Below, piece after piece: positions 1,691 to 35,511 of a stretch of 37,264 nucleotides of DNA. How positions within the stretch are numbered: position 1 is the first letter of the stretch; each line of letters starts with the position of its first letter. The notes under the pieces were generated by a model that worked only from the letters and a program-made list of their open reading frames with translations, made no database searches and had not been told where the DNA came from. The DNA comes from Candidatus Pacearchaeota archaeon CG10_big_fil_rev_8_21_14_0_10_31_59. GTDB lineage: Archaea; Nanobdellota; Nanobdellia; Pacearchaeales; CG1-02-31-27. Made by a program: the position numbers and the translations under genes. Where the stretch lies: the NCBI GenBank assembly GCA_002763115.1, contig PFCW01000001.1, positions 44,491 to 81,754 on the forward strand, read 5' to 3'.

Positions 1691-2977
1691 CTACTTCTTC
1701 TTGACCTTTTCTTTTGTGCCAATAACTTTTTGTCCATTCATGTAAGGAACAAGAACTTTAGGTATTGTTATCGAACCATTTTTATTTTGATAATTTTCAA
1801 TTATGCAGACAATCATTCTCTCTGTCGCTATTGCTGTATTGTTCAAGGTATGAACAAATTTCCTTCCCCCGTTTTCTTCATATTTAATGTTAGACCTTCT
1901 TGCCTGATAATCCAGACAATTTGAACATGATGCCAATTCTCTATATTCATTTTGTGTTGGAAACCATCCTTCAAAATCAATTGTCTTTGTCGGGATCCTC
2001 CCAGTATCTTCCGAAGACAAAACAACAATTCTAAACGGTATTCCCAGTGCTTTGAACATCTCTTTTGTATTTTTTAATATAAAATCAAATTCTTTCCATG
2101 AATCTTCCTGTTTACAGAAAATAAATTGTTCTATCTTTTCAAACTGATGAACTCTAAAAATTCCTTTTGTATCTTTTCCATGACTGCCAGCCTCTTTTCG
2201 GAAGCACGGGCTCATACCTGCAAACCTTATTGGCAATTTTTCTTTGTCTATAACTTCATTCATATAATATGCGTTTAAAGCATGCTCGGCTGTTCCTATC
2301 AAATACAAATCTTCATTTTCTATCTTGTAGATCATATCTTCAAATGCATTTAAATTTAAAGCTCCCTTCAAAGCGTCTCTCTTCAGCATATATGGGGGCT
2401 GGACCAAAATAAAATTTTTCTTGGCTAAAAAATTAATAGCAAAATTAATCAAAGCCTGATTTAATTTTACAACATCTTTTTTTAAATAATAAAATCTCGC
2501 TCCCGCAACTTTCGAAGCTCTTTCAATATCAAGCATGTCTAATTGTAAAAGCAATTCTTCGTGACCTCGAGGTTTGAAACTTAATTTAGAAGGTTTTTTC
2601 ACAATCTCTAAAACTTTATTTTTGCTTGCATCCCCAACAGGAACCGATTTATCAATTATATTGGGAATGTTATCTATCGCTTCATTTCTTTTTTCTTCAA
2701 GTTCAATTAATGCCTTTTCTTTCTCCTCTATTTTTTTGGGAATCTCTTTTGCTCTTTTTATTATATCATCAATTTTTCTGCCGTGCTTTTTTGCTTCGTT
2801 GATAGATTCGCTTATTTTATTCCTTTCAGCCCTCAAAGAATCCACTTCCTGCTTAACATTTCTCCATTTTTCATCTAAATGCAGAATAAAATCTATATCT
2901 TTTTCATCTAACCCTCTTTTTTTCTGACTCTCCTTTATTAATGAAGGATTTTTCCTCAGCAAATTTACATCAATCAT
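1691..2977 (-). CDS. serS: Seryl-tRNA synthetase
   Basis: N-terminal coiled-coil arm, class II motif 2 (FRKEAGSHGKDTKGIFRVHQFEK) and motif 3 (LNNTAIATERMIVCIIENYQ). Confidence 0.95.
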   Translation of the reverse strand: MIDVNLLRKNPSLIKESQKKRGLDEKDIDFILHLDEKWRNVKQEVDSLRAERNKISESINEAKKHGRKIDDIIKRAKEIPKKIEEKEKALIELEEKRNEAIDNIPNIIDKSVPVGDASKNKVLEIVKKPSKLSFKPRGHEELLLQLDMLDIERASKVAGARFYYLKKDVVKLNQALINFAINFLAKKNFILVQPPYMLKRDALKGALNLNAFEDMIYKIENEDLYLIGTAEHALNAYYMNEVIDKEKLPIRFAGMSPCFRKEAGSHGKDTKGIFRVHQFEKIEQFIFCKQEDSWKEFDFILKNTKEMFKALGIPFRIVVLSSEDTGRIPTKTIDFEGWFPTQNEYRELASCSNCLDYQARRSNIKYEENGGRKFVHTLNNTAIATERMIVCIIENYQNKNGSITIPKVLVPYMNGQKVIGTKEKVKKK

Positions 2978-3516: not shown

Positions 3517-5562
3517 ATGATAAGCGTAATATTAGCAGCAGGGAAAGGAAAAAGATTAGGTAGCCTAAGTGATGAAAAACAGAAATCAAGTTTGATTATA
3601 AACAAGAACATAATTCTTTTAAGTCAAATATCTAAAAAAATTTATATTGTTGTGGGGCATAGAAAGGAAGATATTTTCTCAGAGGTTAAGAAATTAAGCA
3701 AGGAATTAAGGGAAAAAATATTTTTTGTAGAACAAAAAGAACAGAATGGTTCTGCCACTGCAGTATCTATTATTGAATCCAAATTAGGGGAAGATGATAA
3801 ACAAGAGAATATATTGGTATGTAATGGCGATACACTTTTAAATCTAGAGATAATAAAAAAAGTTTCCAAATCTAAAAATAACTGTTTGTTGGCCTATACT
3901 ATTGATGATCCTTGGAATTATGGTGTTCTGAAAATTGATAAGAAAAATATCTTGGAAGAGGTAATTGAAAAACCGACAAAAGATGAGATAAAAGAGAATA
4001 ATTTGGGAAATTTTGTAAACGCCGGTATTTACATTTTTCCTTTCGAGATTTTTGATGCAATAAGGGAAACTCCAATAAACAAAAAAAGGAACGAATACGA
4101 AATAACAGACAGCATTATGATATTGAATAAAGAAAAACCATTTGAAGTCATTGAAATTAAGAAACCATTACATATAAGCAACGAAGAAGATTTGAAAAAT
4201 GAAAGACTCGGATTTAAAAACATAATAGAATCTTTCTCGGGAATAAGGGTAGAGTTGAAATATCTAAGAGAAGAAAAACTGATTGATTATGCAAATTGCT
4301 TTGCTTTATTTTTAAACGGAAAAAATAAAATAGTTATAGGAAGAGACAGCAGGAACTCCGGAAAAAATATAGCTAAAATTTTAATAAAATTTTTCACTGA
4401 AAGAGGTTTTTTAGTTTATTATGTTGATATAATCCCAACACCGGCAATTGAATTTGCAATCAGGGAAACTAAATCTGATGGTGGAATAATAATTACAGCA
4501 TCCCATAATCCTGAAGACTATAATGGACTAAAATTCTGCAAAGAAGATGGGAGCCAGCTAACAAAAGATGAATTTGAAAAAATGATTTCTTATAAAAATT
4601 CAGAATTAATTGAAAAGAAAAAAGGAGACTGGAAAAATTTAAGGAGAGAAATAGAAAAGAGATATGTTAAATTTATCCTAGGTTTTTTGAAACCGGAAGC
4701 AAGAAGCATAATTAAAGCTGAAAGACTAAATTTGATTATTGATTTAAATGGAAGTTCTGCTTCAAGGGTAATTTCTGAATTAGTAAAAGAATTAAAATTC
4801 AATGCTAAAATAATAAACAAAAAATTCGGGCAGTTTGAACATAAAATTGAACCGACGGAAGATGCTTTGGAAGAATTAATCAGTTTATGCAAAGAAAAGA
4901 ATACTGCCGGAGCAACTTTTGACTGTGATTCAGACAGACTGGCGTTGATAACGGAGAAAGGCAAATATTTATCTGGAAATGAAATTTTTGCTTTAGGTCT
5001 GATAAATTTTCTAAAGGCAAACAGAAGCAGAGTTGTCATAAATAATATGACTTCTTATATCATAAAAGATATCTGCAATGAGGCCGGTATTAAAATTTAT
5101 GAAACTGATGTTGGTGAATGCAATGTTGTTGAAGCCATGAAGGCAAAAGATTGTTTGGTCGGAGGTGAAGGTTCATCAGGTGGTTTTATACTATGGCCTT
5201 CAAGATGCAGAGACGGAATTTTATCTTTGCTGATAATTTTAGATTATATGTGCAAGGAAAACAAGACTTTACATGATTTATATGAAGAATTGCCGAAACG
5301 ATATTACAAAAAGGGAGGTATAAATAAAAAAATTGAAAATTTAAATGATAAATTAGAAGATTGGTGTATGAGGAATAATTTTAATTTTAAAAACTTCGGA
5401 AAAAATGCAGGATTTAAAATTATGTTTACTGAAGATATATGGGTTGCAATAAGGTCCTCACAAACAGAACCATCTTTGATAAGAATAGCTGTAGATTCAA
5501 AATCAGAAGCTGTCACAGAAAAATTAACTGAAAAAATGAAGACTGTTTTGGAAGGATTTTAA
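3517..5562 (+). CDS. Fusion protein: sugar-1-phosphate nucleotidyltransferase (N) plus phosphohexomutase PGM/PMM/GlmM family (C)
   Basis: N-terminal LAAGKGKRLG (GxGxRL). C-terminal TASHNP phosphoserine loop, FDCDSDR metal loop, GGEGSSGG sugar loop and RSSQTEP phosphate loop. Confidence 0.8.
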   Translation: MISVILAAGKGKRLGSLSDEKQKSSLIINKNIILLSQISKKIYIVVGHRKEDIFSEVKKLSKELREKIFFVEQKEQNGSATAVSIIESKLGEDDKQENILVCNGDTLLNLEIIKKVSKSKNNCLLAYTIDDPWNYGVLKIDKKNILEEVIEKPTKDEIKENNLGNFVNAGIYIFPFEIFDAIRETPINKKRNEYEITDSIMILNKEKPFEVIEIKKPLHISNEEDLKNERLGFKNIIESFSGIRVELKYLREEKLIDYANCFALFLNGKNKIVIGRDSRNSGKNIAKILIKFFTERGFLVYYVDIIPTPAIEFAIRETKSDGGIIITASHNPEDYNGLKFCKEDGSQLTKDEFEKMISYKNSELIEKKKGDWKNLRREIEKRYVKFILGFLKPEARSIIKAERLNLIIDLNGSSASRVISELVKELKFNAKIINKKFGQFEHKIEPTEDALEELISLCKEKNTAGATFDCDSDRLALITEKGKYLSGNEIFALGLINFLKANRSRVVINNMTSYIIKDICNEAGIKIYETDVGECNVVEAMKAKDCLVGGEGSSGGFILWPSRCRDGILSLLIILDYMCKENKTLHDLYEELPKRYYKKGGINKKIENLNDKLEDWCMRNNFNFKNFGKNAGFKIMFTEDIWVAIRSSQTEPSLIRIAVDSKSEAVTEKLTEKMKTVLEGF

Positions 5563-5987
5563 ATATTCCTTTCAACAAATCTTCTCAAACCTTCAACATG
5601 GCTGACTTTTAAATTTTTTAATTTGTCTCTGAAAGAGTCATTGATTTTTACACCTTCCTTCTGGGCTTTTTCTTTTATATAATTGTAAAGTTTTTTGCCT
5701 TCATCATCAAAATCTGTAAAAATTATTATAAAATAATTATTTTCAGCGCAGAATTCTACCAGTTCAGCAATTCGATTGTAAGCCCCTTTTTGCGGAGTTT
5801 TCAGCTGGAATATTTTTTTCTCAGGAATTCCTATCCCCACTAAAGATTTAATATCATTTTTTCCCTCAACTACAATAAAAAAATCTTCATCATAAATTTT
5901 TTCAATATCTTCAAGAAATCTTTTTATCTTTTCAGAATAATTCTCTTTTTCTGCTTCTCTTCTTTTTTCACGACGGTATTTTTTCAT
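5559..5987 (-). CDS. Small Toprim-domain protein (RNase M5 / small primase-like)
   Basis: VVEGKNDIKSL (Toprim Glu) and FTDFDDEGKKL (DxD) motifs; 142 aa. Confidence 0.65.
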   Translation of the reverse strand: MKKYRREKRREAEKENYSEKIKRFLEDIEKIYDEDFFIVVEGKNDIKSLVGIGIPEKKIFQLKTPQKGAYNRIAELVEFCAENNYFIIIFTDFDDEGKKLYNYIKEKAQKEGVKINDSFRDKLKNLKVSHVEGLRRFVERNI

Positions 5988-6068
5988 TGACTATCCTTTC
6001 TTTAGAAAAGAAAGGCTCGTCGAATCCAAAGAAACTTATTTAGTCTTTAGATTGACATAATTTTATTA

Positions 6069-6214
6069 TGGGCCTGAGGGGATTTGGACCCCCGACACCC
6101 GCATTTCACTTACGAATCCAAAAACTAAAATAGTCTTTTGGAACTCCTAGAACCTTTTCTTCTAGAAAAGGTTGTAGTAAGAGTGCGGTGCTCTACCAAC
6201 TGAGCTACAAGCCC
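6069..6214 (-). tRNA. tRNA-Lys(CUU) with a 73-nt intron at 37/38
   Basis: Minus strand: GGGCTTG/CAGGCCC acceptor, GCTC/GAGC D stem, CCGCA/TGCGG anticodon stem, loop CTCTTA|intron|A, GGGGG/CCCCT T stem. No encoded CCA. Confidence 0.85.
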
Positions 6215-8106: not shown

Positions 8107-8322
8107 TTTAAAAATGTTTAGAAATCAGTTGAAACATTTTAACTTTTAAAATTGAATCAACATCATTACAAAAGAATTTTATATTTGAAAATCTTCATAT
8201 TTGTTACTTTTGTAAAGTGGTAAATATACAGAAAAGTATTTAAAGTTGAAGGTCTTAGAAGAATTAACTATAAAATTTACTTTCTGTCAATAAGAATGTA
8301 CTATTGTCAGAGGGTAAAAAAC

Positions 8323-8338
8323 CGAAAGGTTTATATAT
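8323..8338 (+). promoter_or_regulatory. rRNA operon BRE/TATA promoter (CGAAAGGTTTATATAT)
   Basis: Consensus box about 230 nt upstream of the 16S 5' end. No ORF lies between them. Confidence 0.5.
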
Positions 8339-8518
8339 GGAAAAATTTTTGGTGAATAATAAAATGACACTAGATGAGTGCTCTAACCTTGGAAATTATG
8401 TTAGGGTATGATCGAGATAGAGCAAGCAATCTAGTCAAACTTCTTGATTATAATTTTAATTTAAAATAATAGATTCGATCATACCAATATTATCGTCGAG
8501 AATTTTCTAGATTGATAG

Positions 8519-8531
8519 TTTTTCCGTCGAT
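8519..8531 (+). other. 16S processing-stem 5' strand (pairs with 10127-10138)
   Basis: TTTTTCCGTCGAT is complementary to ATCGACGAAAAA (12 bp, one bulged C). The two strands flank the 16S gene. Confidence 0.55.
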
Positions 8532-8569
8532 AAAAATTGATAGGAGAGCTTTAAGTTACTTGTAATAAA

Positions 8570-10009
<1,440 letters not shown>

Positions 10010-10013
10010 ATAA

Positions 10014-10120
10014 TTTTTTTCTCTTATAACCAAGAAATTCATAAGAATTTCTGGTCCAGAAAATTTTTCAAATTTTCTTGGAAGAGAAAAAATTTCATGA
10101 AAAAGAAAACTATATTTTAT
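10014..10120 (+). repeat. Structured spacer module, copy A (16S-tRNAAla spacer)
   Basis: AACCAAGAAATTCATAAGAATTTCTGGTCCAGAAAATTTTTCAAATTTTCTTGGAAG plus flanks. About 90 percent identical to 29222-29330 and related to 32790-32848. Confidence 0.8.
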
Positions 10121-10139
10121 AGTCATATCGACGAAAAAT

Positions 10140-10258
10140 GGGCCCGTAGCTCAGTTGGTTTAGAGCGCCTCCCTTGCAAGGAGGAGGCCCCGTGTTCGAG
10201 AAAATTTTTGCTCTATCTCTTCTAGTGAGTAAAAATTTCGAAAGTCACGGCGGGTCCA
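10140..10258 (+). tRNA. tRNA-Ala(UGC) with a 44-nt intron at 59/60 (T-loop)
   Basis: GGGCCCG/CGGGTCC acceptor, GCTC/GAGC D stem, CCTCC/GGAGG anticodon stem, loop CTTGCAA. The T stem CCGTG/CACGG is separated by 51 nt instead of 7. A perfect BHB forms at the insertion. Confidence 0.9.
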
Positions 10259-13312: not shown

Positions 13313-13353
13313 ACAAAAAACCTAAACTTTTAATCGGAAATTTTCTATCGAGA

Positions 13354-13373
13354 GAAAGTATGTGTTATTTTGC
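13354..13373 (+). other. 23S processing-stem 3' strand
   Basis: Perfect 20-nt complement of 10436-10455. Confidence 0.8.
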
Positions 13374-13512
13374 TTATAAATTTGGAATTCTAAAATATGT
13401 TTTGAACTGAAGAAATAAATATAAATCTACAAAATATCTTAGTTAAATGAAAAAAGCATGTTGGTATGTTTTCGGAATTATTTTTGTTATTATCTGAGCA
13501 ATTTTTTCATTT

Positions 13513-22613: not shown

Positions 22614-22726
22614 GAGATATATACAAAAAATATCTTTATAAATATTTATATTATTTTTTGATTATATCATAACGAACATTTATCCAAAACAGAAAGTTTT
22701 TTATATGAAGCATTTTTAAATTAAAC

Positions 22727-29012: not shown

Positions 29013-29108
29013 CTAATACTTAATTCCGATAAATATTTAAACATTTAGAAACTACTGAAAATATAGAACTTAGTTCTATTTTGTAGTAATTTAAAAGTTA
29101 CAACATAA

Positions 29109-29125
29109 TCGAAAGATTTATAAAC
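29109..29125 (+). promoter_or_regulatory. Orphan BRE/TATA promoter (TCGAAAGATTTATAAAC) with no downstream ORF
   Basis: Best match in the window to the local promoter consensus. It sits between two minus-strand genes and points at a GC-rich hairpin. Confidence 0.5.
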
Positions 29126-29147
29126 TTTTAATTCTATTGAATATTAC

Positions 29148-29221
29148 ACCTCTTTTTCCCCAGGAGAGGCTTTTTCGGCGTCTCTTTGCCCTTGCTGAAG
29201 AAGCTTCTCCCAGGGTTTCAA
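29148..29221 (+). ncRNA. Candidate unknown small RNA (GC-rich 14-bp hairpin)
   Basis: GGAGAGGCTTTTTC (29163-29176) pairs with GAAGAAGCTTCTCC (29197-29210). The segment is far more GC-rich than the flanks and starts about 25 nt after the TATA box. No ATG or ORF. Confidence 0.4.
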
Positions 29222-29330
29222 TTAAACTTTCTTTTTAGAACCAAGAAATTCATAGGAATTTCTGGGCCAGAAAATCCTTCAAGATTTTCTTGGAAAAAGA
29301 AACTTTATAGAAAGAAAAACTACATTAAAA
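29222..29330 (+). repeat. Structured spacer module, copy B
   Basis: Outer stem TAAACTTTCTTTTT/AAAAAGAAACTTTA encloses AACCAAGAAATTCATAGGAATTTCTGGGCCAGAAAATCCTTCAAGATTTTCTTGGAAA. The tail GAAAGAAAAACTACAT matches 10100-10118. Confidence 0.8.
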
Positions 29331-29685: not shown

Positions 29686-29991
29686 TTAAGACTGCTCAGC
29701 AGTTTCAGACTGAGCATCAGGATTTTCTAATTTAGCTTTTGTTTTCTTTGGAATTTTATTGTATTTTTTTAATCCTTCATAGCTGTCATAGACAAAAATA
29801 TCAACATCAAATTTATTTGAGCCGAATTTCTGGTCTATTTTATTTATAACAATATTCTGTTTTTCTTTTTTTAATTTTTTTGACAATTCTTCCTTAATTT
29901 CTTCCTTTGATGGAGTTGTTTTTGATTCTATTAATAATAATATCTCTTCTCTTTCCAACAAATCATTTCTTTTCTGTTTCTCTATTTTCAT
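29686..29991 (-). CDS. rps24e: Ribosomal protein S24e
   Basis: RNDLLEREEILLLIESKTTPSKEEIKEELSKKL matches the S24e N-terminal pattern. ATGA overlap with spt4. Confidence 0.9.
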   Translation of the reverse strand: MKIEKQKRNDLLEREEILLLIESKTTPSKEEIKEELSKKLKKEKQNIVINKIDQKFGSNKFDVDIFVYDSYEGLKKYNKIPKKTKAKLENPDAQSETAEQS

Positions 29992-32625: not shown

Positions 32626-32887
32626 GGGGCCATAGTTTCAATGGCTAAAACAGCCGGCTCCAGAGCAAATCCCTTCTTAGGAAGAAGGTCTTTGCATGTC
32701 CCAAGAACTACTTTAAGTAGTTATTGAGGTGTTGAGGAGATACCGGCAGTTGGGGGTTCGAGAGAAACTTTTTCAGAAAAGTTTCATCAAACCAAGAAAA
32801 TCCAAGGGATTTTCTGGTCCTTGAAATTCGAAAGAATTTCTTTGGAAGCGTGGATGGAGAAGCTTCACGAAAATCCCTCTGGCCCCA
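32626..32887 (+). tRNA. tRNA-Trp(CCA) with two introns (78 nt at 37/38, 111 nt at 59/60)
   Basis: GGGGCCA/TGGCCCC acceptor, GTTT/AAAC D stem, GCCGG/CCGGC anticodon stem, loop CTCCAG|intron|A, GGGGG/CCCTC T stem, T-loop TTCGAG|intron|T. Confidence 0.85.
32790..32848 (+). repeat. Structured spacer module, copy C (inside the tRNA-Trp T-loop intron)
   Basis: AACCAAGAAAATCCAAGGGATTTTCTGGTCCTTGAAATTCGAAAGAATTTCTTTGGAAG. It has the same P1 and linker as copies A and B, with the two hairpins in swapped order. Confidence 0.75.
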
Positions 32888-34530: not shown

Positions 34531-35511
34531 ATGGCTAAGGAAAAAAGCAGGTTTAGTTCGAGCAGTATATGGACAGAAAAATATCGTCCGGATAATTTTG
34601 ATGATTTGACTATAGGGCATGAAAATCTTATTAAAAGAGCCAGAGCATTTGTTACAAGCAAAAATATGCCCCATTTGTTGTTCGCCGGTCCTGCTGGATG
34701 CGGAAAAACAACTTTGGCTTTGATTATTGTCAAGGAGCTTTATGGCAAGAATCGGCGAGAGAATTTTCTTGAATTGAACGCTTCTGATGCAAGAGGCATT
34801 GACGTTGTAAGGCAGCAAATCAAAAGTTTTGCAAGAGTTCACAGTTTGGGAGATGTTCCCTTCAAAATTATTTTTTTGGATGAAAGCGATGCATTAACAA
34901 AGGAAGCACAGCAGGCATTAAGAAGAACAATGGAAAATTATACTGAAACCTGCAGATTTATTTTAAGCTGCAATTATTCGTCTAAATTAATAGACCCAAT
35001 TCAATCAAGATGTGCTGTATTCAGATTCAAGTTAATAGACAAAAAAGACATTGACGAGAAAATTGACATTATTGCAAAAGGCGAAAGTCTAAAAATTGAT
35101 GAGAAAGCAAAAAGTGCTTTATATGAAGTTAGCAACGGAGATTTGAGGAGAGCAATAAATCTGTTGCAGGCATCAGCTTCTGTTGACAAACATATAACAG
35201 AAAATTTAGTTTATGAAATAGCGTCAACAGTGAAACCTACACAAATAAAACATATACTCGAAAATTCTTTGGACGGAAAATTTTTGGAAGCAAGAGAGAA
35301 GCTTTTTGATTTGATGTTGAAGGAAGGTTTGTCTGGAATAGACATAATCAAGGCAATTTCTTCCCAATTAACAGAATTAAAAATTTCCAATGAAAAAAAA
35401 TTAAAAATTATCGAGAGAGTTGCAGAGGCGGAATTCAGATTAGTTGAAGGTTCTGACGAGTTTATCCAGTTGGAGGCTTTATTGGCAAGTTTTGGTGTTA
35501 TAGGGAGGTAA
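34531..35511 (+). CDS. rfcS: Replication factor C small subunit
   Basis: WTEKYRP, GPAGCGKTT (Walker A), FLDESD (Walker B), SRC motif (IQSRCAVFRF) and GDLRRAINLLQ. Confidence 0.95.
   Translation: MAKEKSRFSSSSIWTEKYRPDNFDDLTIGHENLIKRARAFVTSKNMPHLLFAGPAGCGKTTLALIIVKELYGKNRRENFLELNASDARGIDVVRQQIKSFARVHSLGDVPFKIIFLDESDALTKEAQQALRRTMENYTETCRFILSCNYSSKLIDPIQSRCAVFRFKLIDKKDIDEKIDIIAKGESLKIDEKAKSALYEVSNGDLRRAINLLQASASVDKHITENLVYEIASTVKPTQIKHILENSLDGKFLEAREKLFDLMLKEGLSGIDIIKAISSQLTELKISNEKKLKIIERVAEAEFRLVEGSDEFIQLEALLASFGVIGR

Follow-up and report, generated by a model that had tools for sequence, protein, structure and literature searches.

A palindromic double-hairpin repeat of Woese-, Pace- and Nanoarchaeota that resembles selfish mobile DNA

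Why should the same short structured module occur in an rRNA spacer, in a tRNA intron and behind a small RNA gene of a single archaeon, all three places belonging to RNA that is discarded during maturation? The question is raised by a stretch of 37,264 nucleotides from a Candidatus Pacearchaeota genome (contig PFCW01000001.1), referred to here as the window, in which three copies of the module (A, B, and C) were noticed. The original prediction regarded the module as a portable processing or protein-recruitment element, or else as a small intron-like mobile RNA. The analysis described below, based on direct reading of the sequence, structural comparison and searches of other genomes and metagenomes, indicates that the family looks like selfish mobile DNA and not like an RNA-processing signal.

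Copies in the window and their surroundings

The window belongs to an AT-rich (about 30% GC) DPANN-type archaeon and contains a 16S-tRNA-Ala-23S operon, the RNase P RNA and intron-bearing tRNAs. Modules A, B, and C were all found by direct reading where they had been predicted and in the contexts described. The relevant features are as follows.

8568..10009, plus strand: 16S rRNA, context of copy A
10014..10120: extended A element, with an outer helix (P0) around the core and a 3' extension common to B
10030..10081, no strand assigned: core of copy A, covariance model 60.9 bits on the plus and 44.4 bits on the minus strand
10030-10054: hairpin I of copy A, CCAAGAAATTC ATAA GAATTTCTGG
10055: centre base of copy A, T
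10056-10081: hairpin II of copy A, CCAGAAAATTT TTC AAATTTTCTTGG
10140..10258, plus strand: tRNA-Ala gene in the context of copy A, its T-loop intron (about 10200-10244) having a perfect hBHBh' motif
29147..29220, plus strand: conserved small hairpin RNA gene, distinct from the repeat, with an 18-bp stem that includes G-U pairs; BRE/TATA-like box at about 29108-29123
29222..29330: extended B element, P0 of about 29227-29236 with about 29294-29305, then a 3' extension homologous to that of A
29241..29293, no strand assigned: core of copy B, covariance model 61 bits on the plus and 48.5 bits on the minus strand
29241-29265, 29266, and 29267-29293: hairpin I, centre base G and hairpin II of copy B
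32792..32845, inverted relative to A and B: core of copy C, covariance model 56.9 bits on the plus and 46.5 bits on the minus strand

Copy A follows the 16S 3' end (10009) and precedes the 3' strand of the 16S processing stem, whose two paired strands are 8518-8532 and 10126-10139. Its P0, formed by 10015-10026 and 10082-10092, encloses the core, and the whole of 10015-10092, outer helix included, is an independent domain in the 16S 3' trailer. Copy B adjoins the promoter-bearing hairpin RNA (about 29147-29220) on the 3' side of that RNA, and the extended B element is placed between the 3' end of the RNA gene and the stop codon of S27ae. Copy C is part of the T-loop intron (about 32762-32873) of the tRNA-Trp(CCA) gene (32626-32887), which was read by eye.

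A 23-base pattern common to the three copies, CCAAGAAAN{8,12}TTTCTGGNCCN{12,22}TTTCTT, is present in A, B, and C, with additional minus-strand matches in A and B, and has 0 matches in each of 100 dinucleotide shuffles. The cores of A and B are identical at 48 of 53 positions (91%, against a predicted figure of about 90%), the expected T-A versus C-G difference is present in the second hairpin, and the homology that had been noted past the core extends the similarity to about 92 nt at 75%. The hairpins of C had been described as swapped in order. Judged from the alignment, copy C is instead an inverted copy of A and B with its hairpins not swapped, because its reverse complement aligns better to A and B (76 and 80% identity) than does its direct strand (70 and 73%). 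The three copies fold better than shuffled sequences both as RNA (z of -3.2 to -3.7) and as single-stranded DNA of either strand (z of -3.9 to -5.5). A covariance model run with its filters off detected no fourth copy in 57 kb of the genome of the window organism; a partial match within the S24e gene (29824-29836) is no better than chance.

Other RNA features of the same stretch were recorded. The T-loop introns of tRNA-Ala (10140-10258) and tRNA-Trp (32626-32887) have a central helix in common (TTCG/CGAA), with AGA and A(G/A)T bulges, and in tRNA-Trp a second intron of about 78 nt interrupts the anticodon loop. ARAGORN misses both genes, and Rfam detects part of tRNA-Ala only. At 6069-6214 on the minus strand there is a tRNA of 146 nt (Rfam, 51.9 bits), not called by ARAGORN, which must contain an intron of about 75 nt. 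The 16S 3' end (9994-10009) reads GGAUGGACCACCUCCU, versus the usual GGAUCACCUCCU, and a recurrent box of the AAAnCnnAAAGnTTTATATA type (BRE/TATA-like; 8318-8342, 22686-22710, 35104-35128, and 29108-29123) precedes the rRNA operon and further transcription units. An 81-nt leader is present in two copies of 98.8% identity, one at 5985-6065 of the window (minus strand) and the other at 13333-13413 of locus L154, about 1.6 kb past the end of the window. In either place it runs as far as the ATG of a gene, and the two genes, one a Toprim-domain ORF (5559-5987) and the other a DUF87/HerA-like ATPase, are unrelated; it bears the hairpin CCTTTCTTTTCTAAAGAAAGG just before the start codon and may be a common regulatory leader.

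The small hairpin RNA beside copy B has no Rfam match. It also occurs in loci L051 (about 2290-2370, minus strand) and L065 (about 2590-2680, minus strand), with the same promoter box, a covarying stem and conserved ends (5' CACCUCUUUUU(C/A)CCC; 3' AGGGUUU). In the window and in L051 it is placed between S27ae and ScpA; in L065 a HicB/HicA toxin-antitoxin pair (1970-2405) takes the position of S27ae beside it.

Architecture of the double hairpin

The module consists of four arms that repeat one motif in alternating orientation (CCAAGAAAW.. / ..WTTTCTGG / CCAGAAAW.. / ..WTTTCTTGG). Its core comprises two imperfect palindromes in inverted orientation, touching or overlapping by one base, of the form N-CCA(A)GAAAA..TTTTC-TGG-N' followed by N'-CCAGAAAA..TTTTC(T)TGG-N, and the family consensus may be written as (C)CCAAGAAAA-x-loop-x'-TTTTCTGG(N)CCAGAAAA-y-loop-y'-TTTTCTTGG(G). 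Because the conserved part of this consensus equals its own reverse complement, both strands of most copies are recognized, at similar scores, by the pattern and by the covariance model (about 103 sites for the model, among the matches listed). Hairpins I and II, of 25–27 nt each, are mutual inverted copies in their conserved parts, and since the core is made of two inverted palindromes the same pair of bulged hairpins can be extruded from either DNA strand or from either transcript. The blocks CCAAGAAA, TTTCTGG, CCAGAAA, and TTTCTTGG are invariant in more than 100 unique copies.

The fold that was first proposed, a P1 helix with a single-stranded linker, is one possible structure. In the minimum-energy folds the "linker" pairs with the outer CCA, giving two tandem hairpins with one bulged base each (hairpin I has an A bulged from its 5' arm, hairpin II a T/U from its 3' arm). 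Across the family the centre base covaries with the bases that flank the core, which favours the two tandem bulged hairpins over a P1 three-way junction. Both flanking bases complement the centre in 36 of the 37 single-centre copies (T-A-T, A-T-A, G-C-G, C-G-C), and a GC centre is accompanied by C...G flanks, so that either hairpin can be closed on either strand. The two flanks are complementary to one another in only 19 of 76 copies, so P1 is not extended.

The hairpins are supported by covariation among 76 unique copies aligned by their invariant anchors only. Stem positions 4–6 are 93–100% Watson-Crick with three to four pair types, the observed pairing is 0.76–0.78 versus 0.40 when partners are shuffled (0 of 1000 shuffles reach the observed value), and the hairpin tips vary among copies yet remain complementary. 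RNAalifold recovers the same two hairpins from 30 copies (alignment A1), with compensatory changes at 7 of 18 pairs, and from alignment A4 the invariant centre only. In the 76 copies G-U pairs are as rare as A-C mismatches, and hence neither strand is marked as the RNA strand. Loops are flipped (AAA/TTT, AGA/TCT) among otherwise identical copies, as is expected of DNA palindromes.

The core is embedded in longer hairpin-forming elements of about 90–216 nt that differ by genome: A and B of the window measure about 105 nt, members of a Nanoarchaeota-type subfamily about 90 nt and those of the Woesearchaeote PCYA01 about 216 nt, the last having imperfect inverted ends (TGTCAAGAACCAC...GGCATTCCGACA). 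The ends of the core itself, CCAAG...CTTGG, are terminal inverted repeats such as are used to recognize MITEs. In 36 of 37 single-centre copies the core has the same base on both sides (x = z), and the insertion in the EndoIII-like gene described below is flanked by TG...TG; no unambiguous target-site duplication was found, since identical flanks can also be read as hairpin closure.

Distribution, insertion sites and neighbouring genes

A scan of species-representative genomes with the exact pattern returned 30 loci, of which 27 are in archaeal MAGs, nearly all of them Woese-, Pace- or Nanoarchaeota (DPANN), with ten in PCYA01 alone; the remaining three (two bacterial, one from Methanobacteriota) are chance-like. 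A looser pattern applied to metagenome contigs gave at least 113 loci, and both scans combined amount to at least 129 copies, at least 105 of them unique. The family thus has many further members in other DPANN archaea. The scan of viral contigs gave 0 matches, and no copy occurs in 57 kb of related Pacearchaeota loci (L032-L038), which points to a patchy distribution. Arrays of GAAA..TTTC hairpins were seen adjoining copies between genes (L052, about 1500-1630; L103, about 1270-1311; L047, 6495-6589; L110, 5923-6017), as were three-hairpin arrays with a repeated CTGG-N-CCAG junction, an arrangement like that of REP clusters.

In keeping with the original prediction, the module has no match in Rfam at the gathering score; at E <= 10 the best is Yfr19, with 21.6 bits versus a cut-off of 70. 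Likenesses to K-turns, C/D boxes, H/ACA RNAs and origin-recognition boxes were checked by eye and dismissed, the defining motifs being missing. The searchable full-text literature contains no description that combines DPANN or Woese-/Pacearchaeota with palindromic, MITE or REP elements, and a 2024 review of prokaryotic MITEs lists no DPANN cases. Within the limits of the literature searched the family is undescribed, and the kind of element is already known. Its unusual traits are a core common to several orders, a two-fold symmetric double hairpin and RPE-like insertion in essential archaeal genes.

Among the matches listed, 52 copies lie between tandem genes, 17 between divergent and 13 between convergent genes, 31 are at contig edges and 16 overlap ORFs, several of the latter being spurious small frames; ten short-gap "tandem" cases that were inspected have ordinary stops and starts. 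Copies occur in both orientations relative to co-directional neighbouring genes (13:9), and the neighbours are housekeeping genes such as those for FtsZ, EF-2, aminoacyl-tRNA synthetases and ribosomal proteins. None of the 27 species-representative copies outside the window organism is in an rRNA spacer or a tRNA intron. Location in discarded RNA, to which the original prediction gave weight, is therefore true of A, B, and C and is not a property of the family, most copies being in ordinary intergenic DNA.

About 5 of the at least 129 copies are in clear protein genes, cases that were identified via their open frames, and the majority are intergenic. In the ArgRS gene of L056 a 90-nt element corresponds to exactly 30 extra residues in the linker before the anticodon-binding domain; the insert is missing from homologues of 82% and 80% identity and from eleven others, the flanks are conserved, and translation would yield a peptide such as PKKIIRNFLGPENQEGFLG. 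In an EndoIII-like gene (L030) a 216-nt element corresponds to 72 extra residues, missing from all close homologues (58–65% identity in the alignment; 66% is given for the closest), and the downstream Fe-S cluster motif stays in frame. Copies are also in frame in a gene for a PAP2 membrane protein and in a HEPN-domain ORF, and in all four genes the insertions are multiples of three and free of stops. The fifth copy (L144) is in frame inside the LAGLIDADG homing-endonuclease ORF of a 23S intron and has in one hairpin loop a TAA that flipping of the loop would abolish. A further copy lies within a 447-nt ORF-less 23S insertion (L066). Insertions of 450–800 nt at classical intron sites are thus present in 23S genes of other DPANN archaea (L144, 6027-6827 and 7484-8229; L066, 380-826).

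Orthologous sites without the module were found. Locus L051 has the same gene order as the window around copy B (S24e, S27ae, the hairpin RNA on the opposite strand, ScpA) and L065 retains the RNA-ScpA pair, both without a module after the RNA; copy B is therefore an insertion specific to its lineage, placed between two convergent genes. One other complete rRNA operon was recovered (L144), and its 16S-23S spacer is free of the module. Presence/absence polymorphism was not seen among contigs of the window organism from other samples, which are 99.97–100% identical and all carry the copies. Locus L058, with a module after its 16S gene, was set aside as an informative relative, since 461 nt of its 16S 3' end and spacer are identical to the window; judged from this identity it is read as the same organism, with a whole 16S match of 96.3%. 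When orthologous tRNA-Trp loci were sought via the neighbouring protein, the nearest relatives were about 50% identical and downstream synteny was lost. Taken as a whole, the copies are inserted at unrelated loci and in both orientations, with orthologous sites empty, and the description of the module as a recurrent, structured and portable unit holds.

The search for a mobilizing enzyme covered the neighbourhood of the copies. No transposase is present within about 4–7 kb of them, and after clustering of 839 neighbouring ORFs only housekeeping families recur; neither a RAYT-like gene nor a recurrent non-housekeeping neighbour was found in the 4–20 kb read around the copies, and neither the flanking DNA (about 1 Mb) nor viral contigs yielded an autonomous IS whose ends match and which could be the parent.

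Affinities of the repeat and competing explanations

A family of palindromic DNA repeats, small, non-autonomous and similar to REP doublets and MITEs, has probably spread through Woese-, Pace-, and Nanoarchaeota, and the module is probably its conserved core. By analogy, its closest resemblances appear to be with REP doublets/REPINs, RPEs, MITEs and organellar double-hairpin elements (PMC3116915, PMC2817692, PMC3733652, PMC10969869, PMC2800124).

REP doublets (BIMEs/REPINs) are mobilized by RAYT, an IS200/IS605-like Y1 HUH transposase (PMC3116915, PMC2817692, PMC3733652). Like them, the DPANN repeat consists of short imperfect palindromes with a conserved foot, arranged as inverted pairs (0–2 bp apart in some REP families), whose two units differ in stem and loop ("heterodimers") and whose hairpins form on single strands. 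It is likewise dispersed, mainly extragenic and occasionally intragenic, with most copies lacking an adjacent transposase, and its 25–27-nt units (at least 129 copies, mostly intergenic) fall within the 20–40 bp class. Unlike REPs, it has no GTAG or CGTC tag, the foot being CCA(A)GAAAA / TTTTC(T)TGG with a conserved bulged A/T and the ends CCAAG / CTGG; its host is archaeal (DPANN) and its core is contained in longer elements of about 90–216 nt that differ by genome. Since the tag is missing, the element is not filed as a REP.

Rickettsia palindromic elements (RPEs; reviewed in PMC10969869), of which RPE-4 and RPE-6 are CGTC REPs (PMC3733652), are also palindromic repeats found in frame in unrelated housekeeping genes, where they add a short peptide at tolerated sites, as well as in non-coding DNA and RNA genes. 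The DPANN repeat differs in host domain and in sequence, and only about 5 of its at least 129 copies are in clear protein genes; compared by the tags described in PMC3733652, the consensus is unrelated to RPE-1 to RPE-10 and the CGTC families. Archaeal MITEs and PATEs, such as the Sulfolobus SM elements and the Haloquadratum PATEs (PMC10969869), are non-autonomous, multi-copy and bounded by inverted repeats as well, and PATEs bear terminal hairpins of the IS200/IS605 type. These are genus-specific with an identifiable parent IS in the same genome, unlike the DPANN repeat, whose core is common to several orders and whose parent element was not seen in the approximately 1 Mb of flanking DNA. A further parallel would be the hairpin repeats, double-hairpin elements among them, of mitochondrial DNA in fungi and sponges, as they are cited in PMC2800124 and PMC7218506: going by those citations, they are mobile units of two adjacent hairpins at intergenic, intron and variable-rRNA sites of compact AT-rich genomes, differing from the DPANN repeat in being organellar and unrelated in sequence.

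A trans-acting enzyme would copy or move the element by recognizing the hairpin foot and bulge on single-stranded DNA. Because the unit resembles a REP doublet with a conserved bulge, the most likely candidate would be a hairpin-specific HUH/Y1 transposase (IS200/IS605- or RAYT-like). Copies would persist only where they are harmless, that is, in intergenic DNA, in rRNA spacers and in tRNA/rRNA introns, and would be tolerated in surface linkers of proteins when length and frame allow, in which case 18–72 extra residues would be translated. Modules A, B, and C would be passive passengers of a spacer, of the DNA downstream of a small RNA gene and of an intron, removed along with their host RNA without directing its removal. 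In such a dense genome about 50–100 nt can be added at no cost in few places, spacers, introns and gaps after RNA genes being among them, which would account for the location of all three window copies in discarded RNA. A symmetric bulged foot, exact complementarity without wobble, loop flips, both orientations, non-essential and in-frame protein sites, patchy copy number and empty orthologous sites are all properties of selfish palindromic repeats.

An unlikely alternative is that the repeat has been domesticated by its hosts as a structural element of DNA or RNA (a bidirectional terminator, an RNA-stability hairpin, a chromosome-organizing cruciform or protein site, or a site for a dimeric protein). 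Such domestication as structural elements has been proposed for bacterial REPs. The two-fold symmetry of the conserved part, the T4 run on the 3' arm of each hairpin in either orientation and the mostly extragenic positions are compatible with it, as is the breadth of conservation: the core is maintained across genomes of 30–50% GC, which exceeds the usual range of a MITE and could mean a host function. However, gene 5' sides are as frequent as convergent gaps among the matches listed (17 divergent versus 13 convergent), copies occur inside ORFs, related Pacearchaeota loci have none, and a terminator within the rRNA operon, upstream of tRNA-Ala and 23S, would be harmful.

It is distinctly unlikely that the family is a functional RNA module, that is, a portable protein-recruitment or processing element of precursor RNAs (rRNA spacer, tRNA intron, sRNA trailer), as first supposed. 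In its favour are the stability and covariation of the hairpins, the strong conservation of the core throughout the group, the transcription and later removal of the RNA that holds the three window copies, and the two further copies in 23S introns of other lineages. These facts are offset by the intergenic position of most copies in both orientations, by the several copies in frame within protein genes, by the occurrence elsewhere of the sRNA gene adjacent to B and of another rRNA operon without the module, and by a strand-symmetric consensus with no enrichment of G-U pairs; moreover, introns and spacers of a compact genome tolerate any insertion. The common outer helix of A and B, together with the location of all three copies in transcribed, discarded RNA, does count against the mobile-DNA reading, and a local RNA role of the window copies is conceivable. 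Nothing requires a processing or protein-recruitment role in the window organism alone.

Archaeal bulge-helix-bulge (BHB) introns move between sites, as in the tRNA intron transposition of Thermoproteales. The repeat is similar in that related sequence occurs in introns at different positions, one copy being in a tRNA intron; it differs in not being BHB-bounded and in having most copies outside RNA genes. We regard as very improbable a recognition at the RNA level, besides or instead of DNA, in which a DPANN-wide activity would excise or process the element from any transcript as an orientation-independent mini-intron, although this, if true, would account for the copies in ArgRS, in rRNA spacers and in introns. 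Extremely improbable is an RNA-level mobile mini-intron excised by the tRNA-splicing endonuclease or another activity. It would explain the tolerance in essential genes and fits the copies in tRNA/rRNA introns and inside ArgRS, as well as a symmetric structure that gives the same RNA in either orientation. A strict BHB scan (3-nt bulges, 4-bp helix), which misses the relaxed motifs of tRNA-Trp, recovers the T-loop intron of tRNA-Ala (CCGTG|TTCG[AGA]AAATTTTT with AAAAATTT|CGAA[AGT]CACGG; h = 5, h' = 8) as a positive control. Around A, B, and C and around the insertions in ArgRS, EndoIII, PAP2 and the HEPN ORF it reveals only 3+3-bp matches of the wrong span and no BHB with the correct one; the intron-like RNA of the original prediction is therefore not supported. 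Furthermore, four of the five gene-internal insertions are in frame and stop-free (90 nt in ArgRS, 216 nt in EndoIII), which splicing would not need, an argument of limited weight since the cases were found by looking for open frames; the fifth, in the LAGLIDADG ORF, is in frame with its TAA.

Chance convergence of the compositional GAAA..TTTC hairpins of AT-rich DPANN intergenic DNA, suggested by the other such hairpins and arrays adjoining copies (e.g., L052 and L103), is refuted by the lack of matches in 100 shuffles, by the long invariant blocks in more than 100 unique copies, by the 91% identity of A and B and by the precise indels in genes.

DPANN genomes are tiny and dense and are usually thought to be poor in mobile DNA. 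As a mobile palindromic DNA family, the repeat would be the archaeal counterpart of the bacterial REP/REPIN and Rickettsia RPE elements. Recurrence in a spacer and an intron is, by itself, no evidence of an RNA-processing function. The copies give rise to spurious small ORFs and to unexpected protein inserts, and the repeat provides a marker for strain typing and for errors of assembly and annotation, while its strongly conserved hairpin foot points to a putative enzyme that recognizes it.
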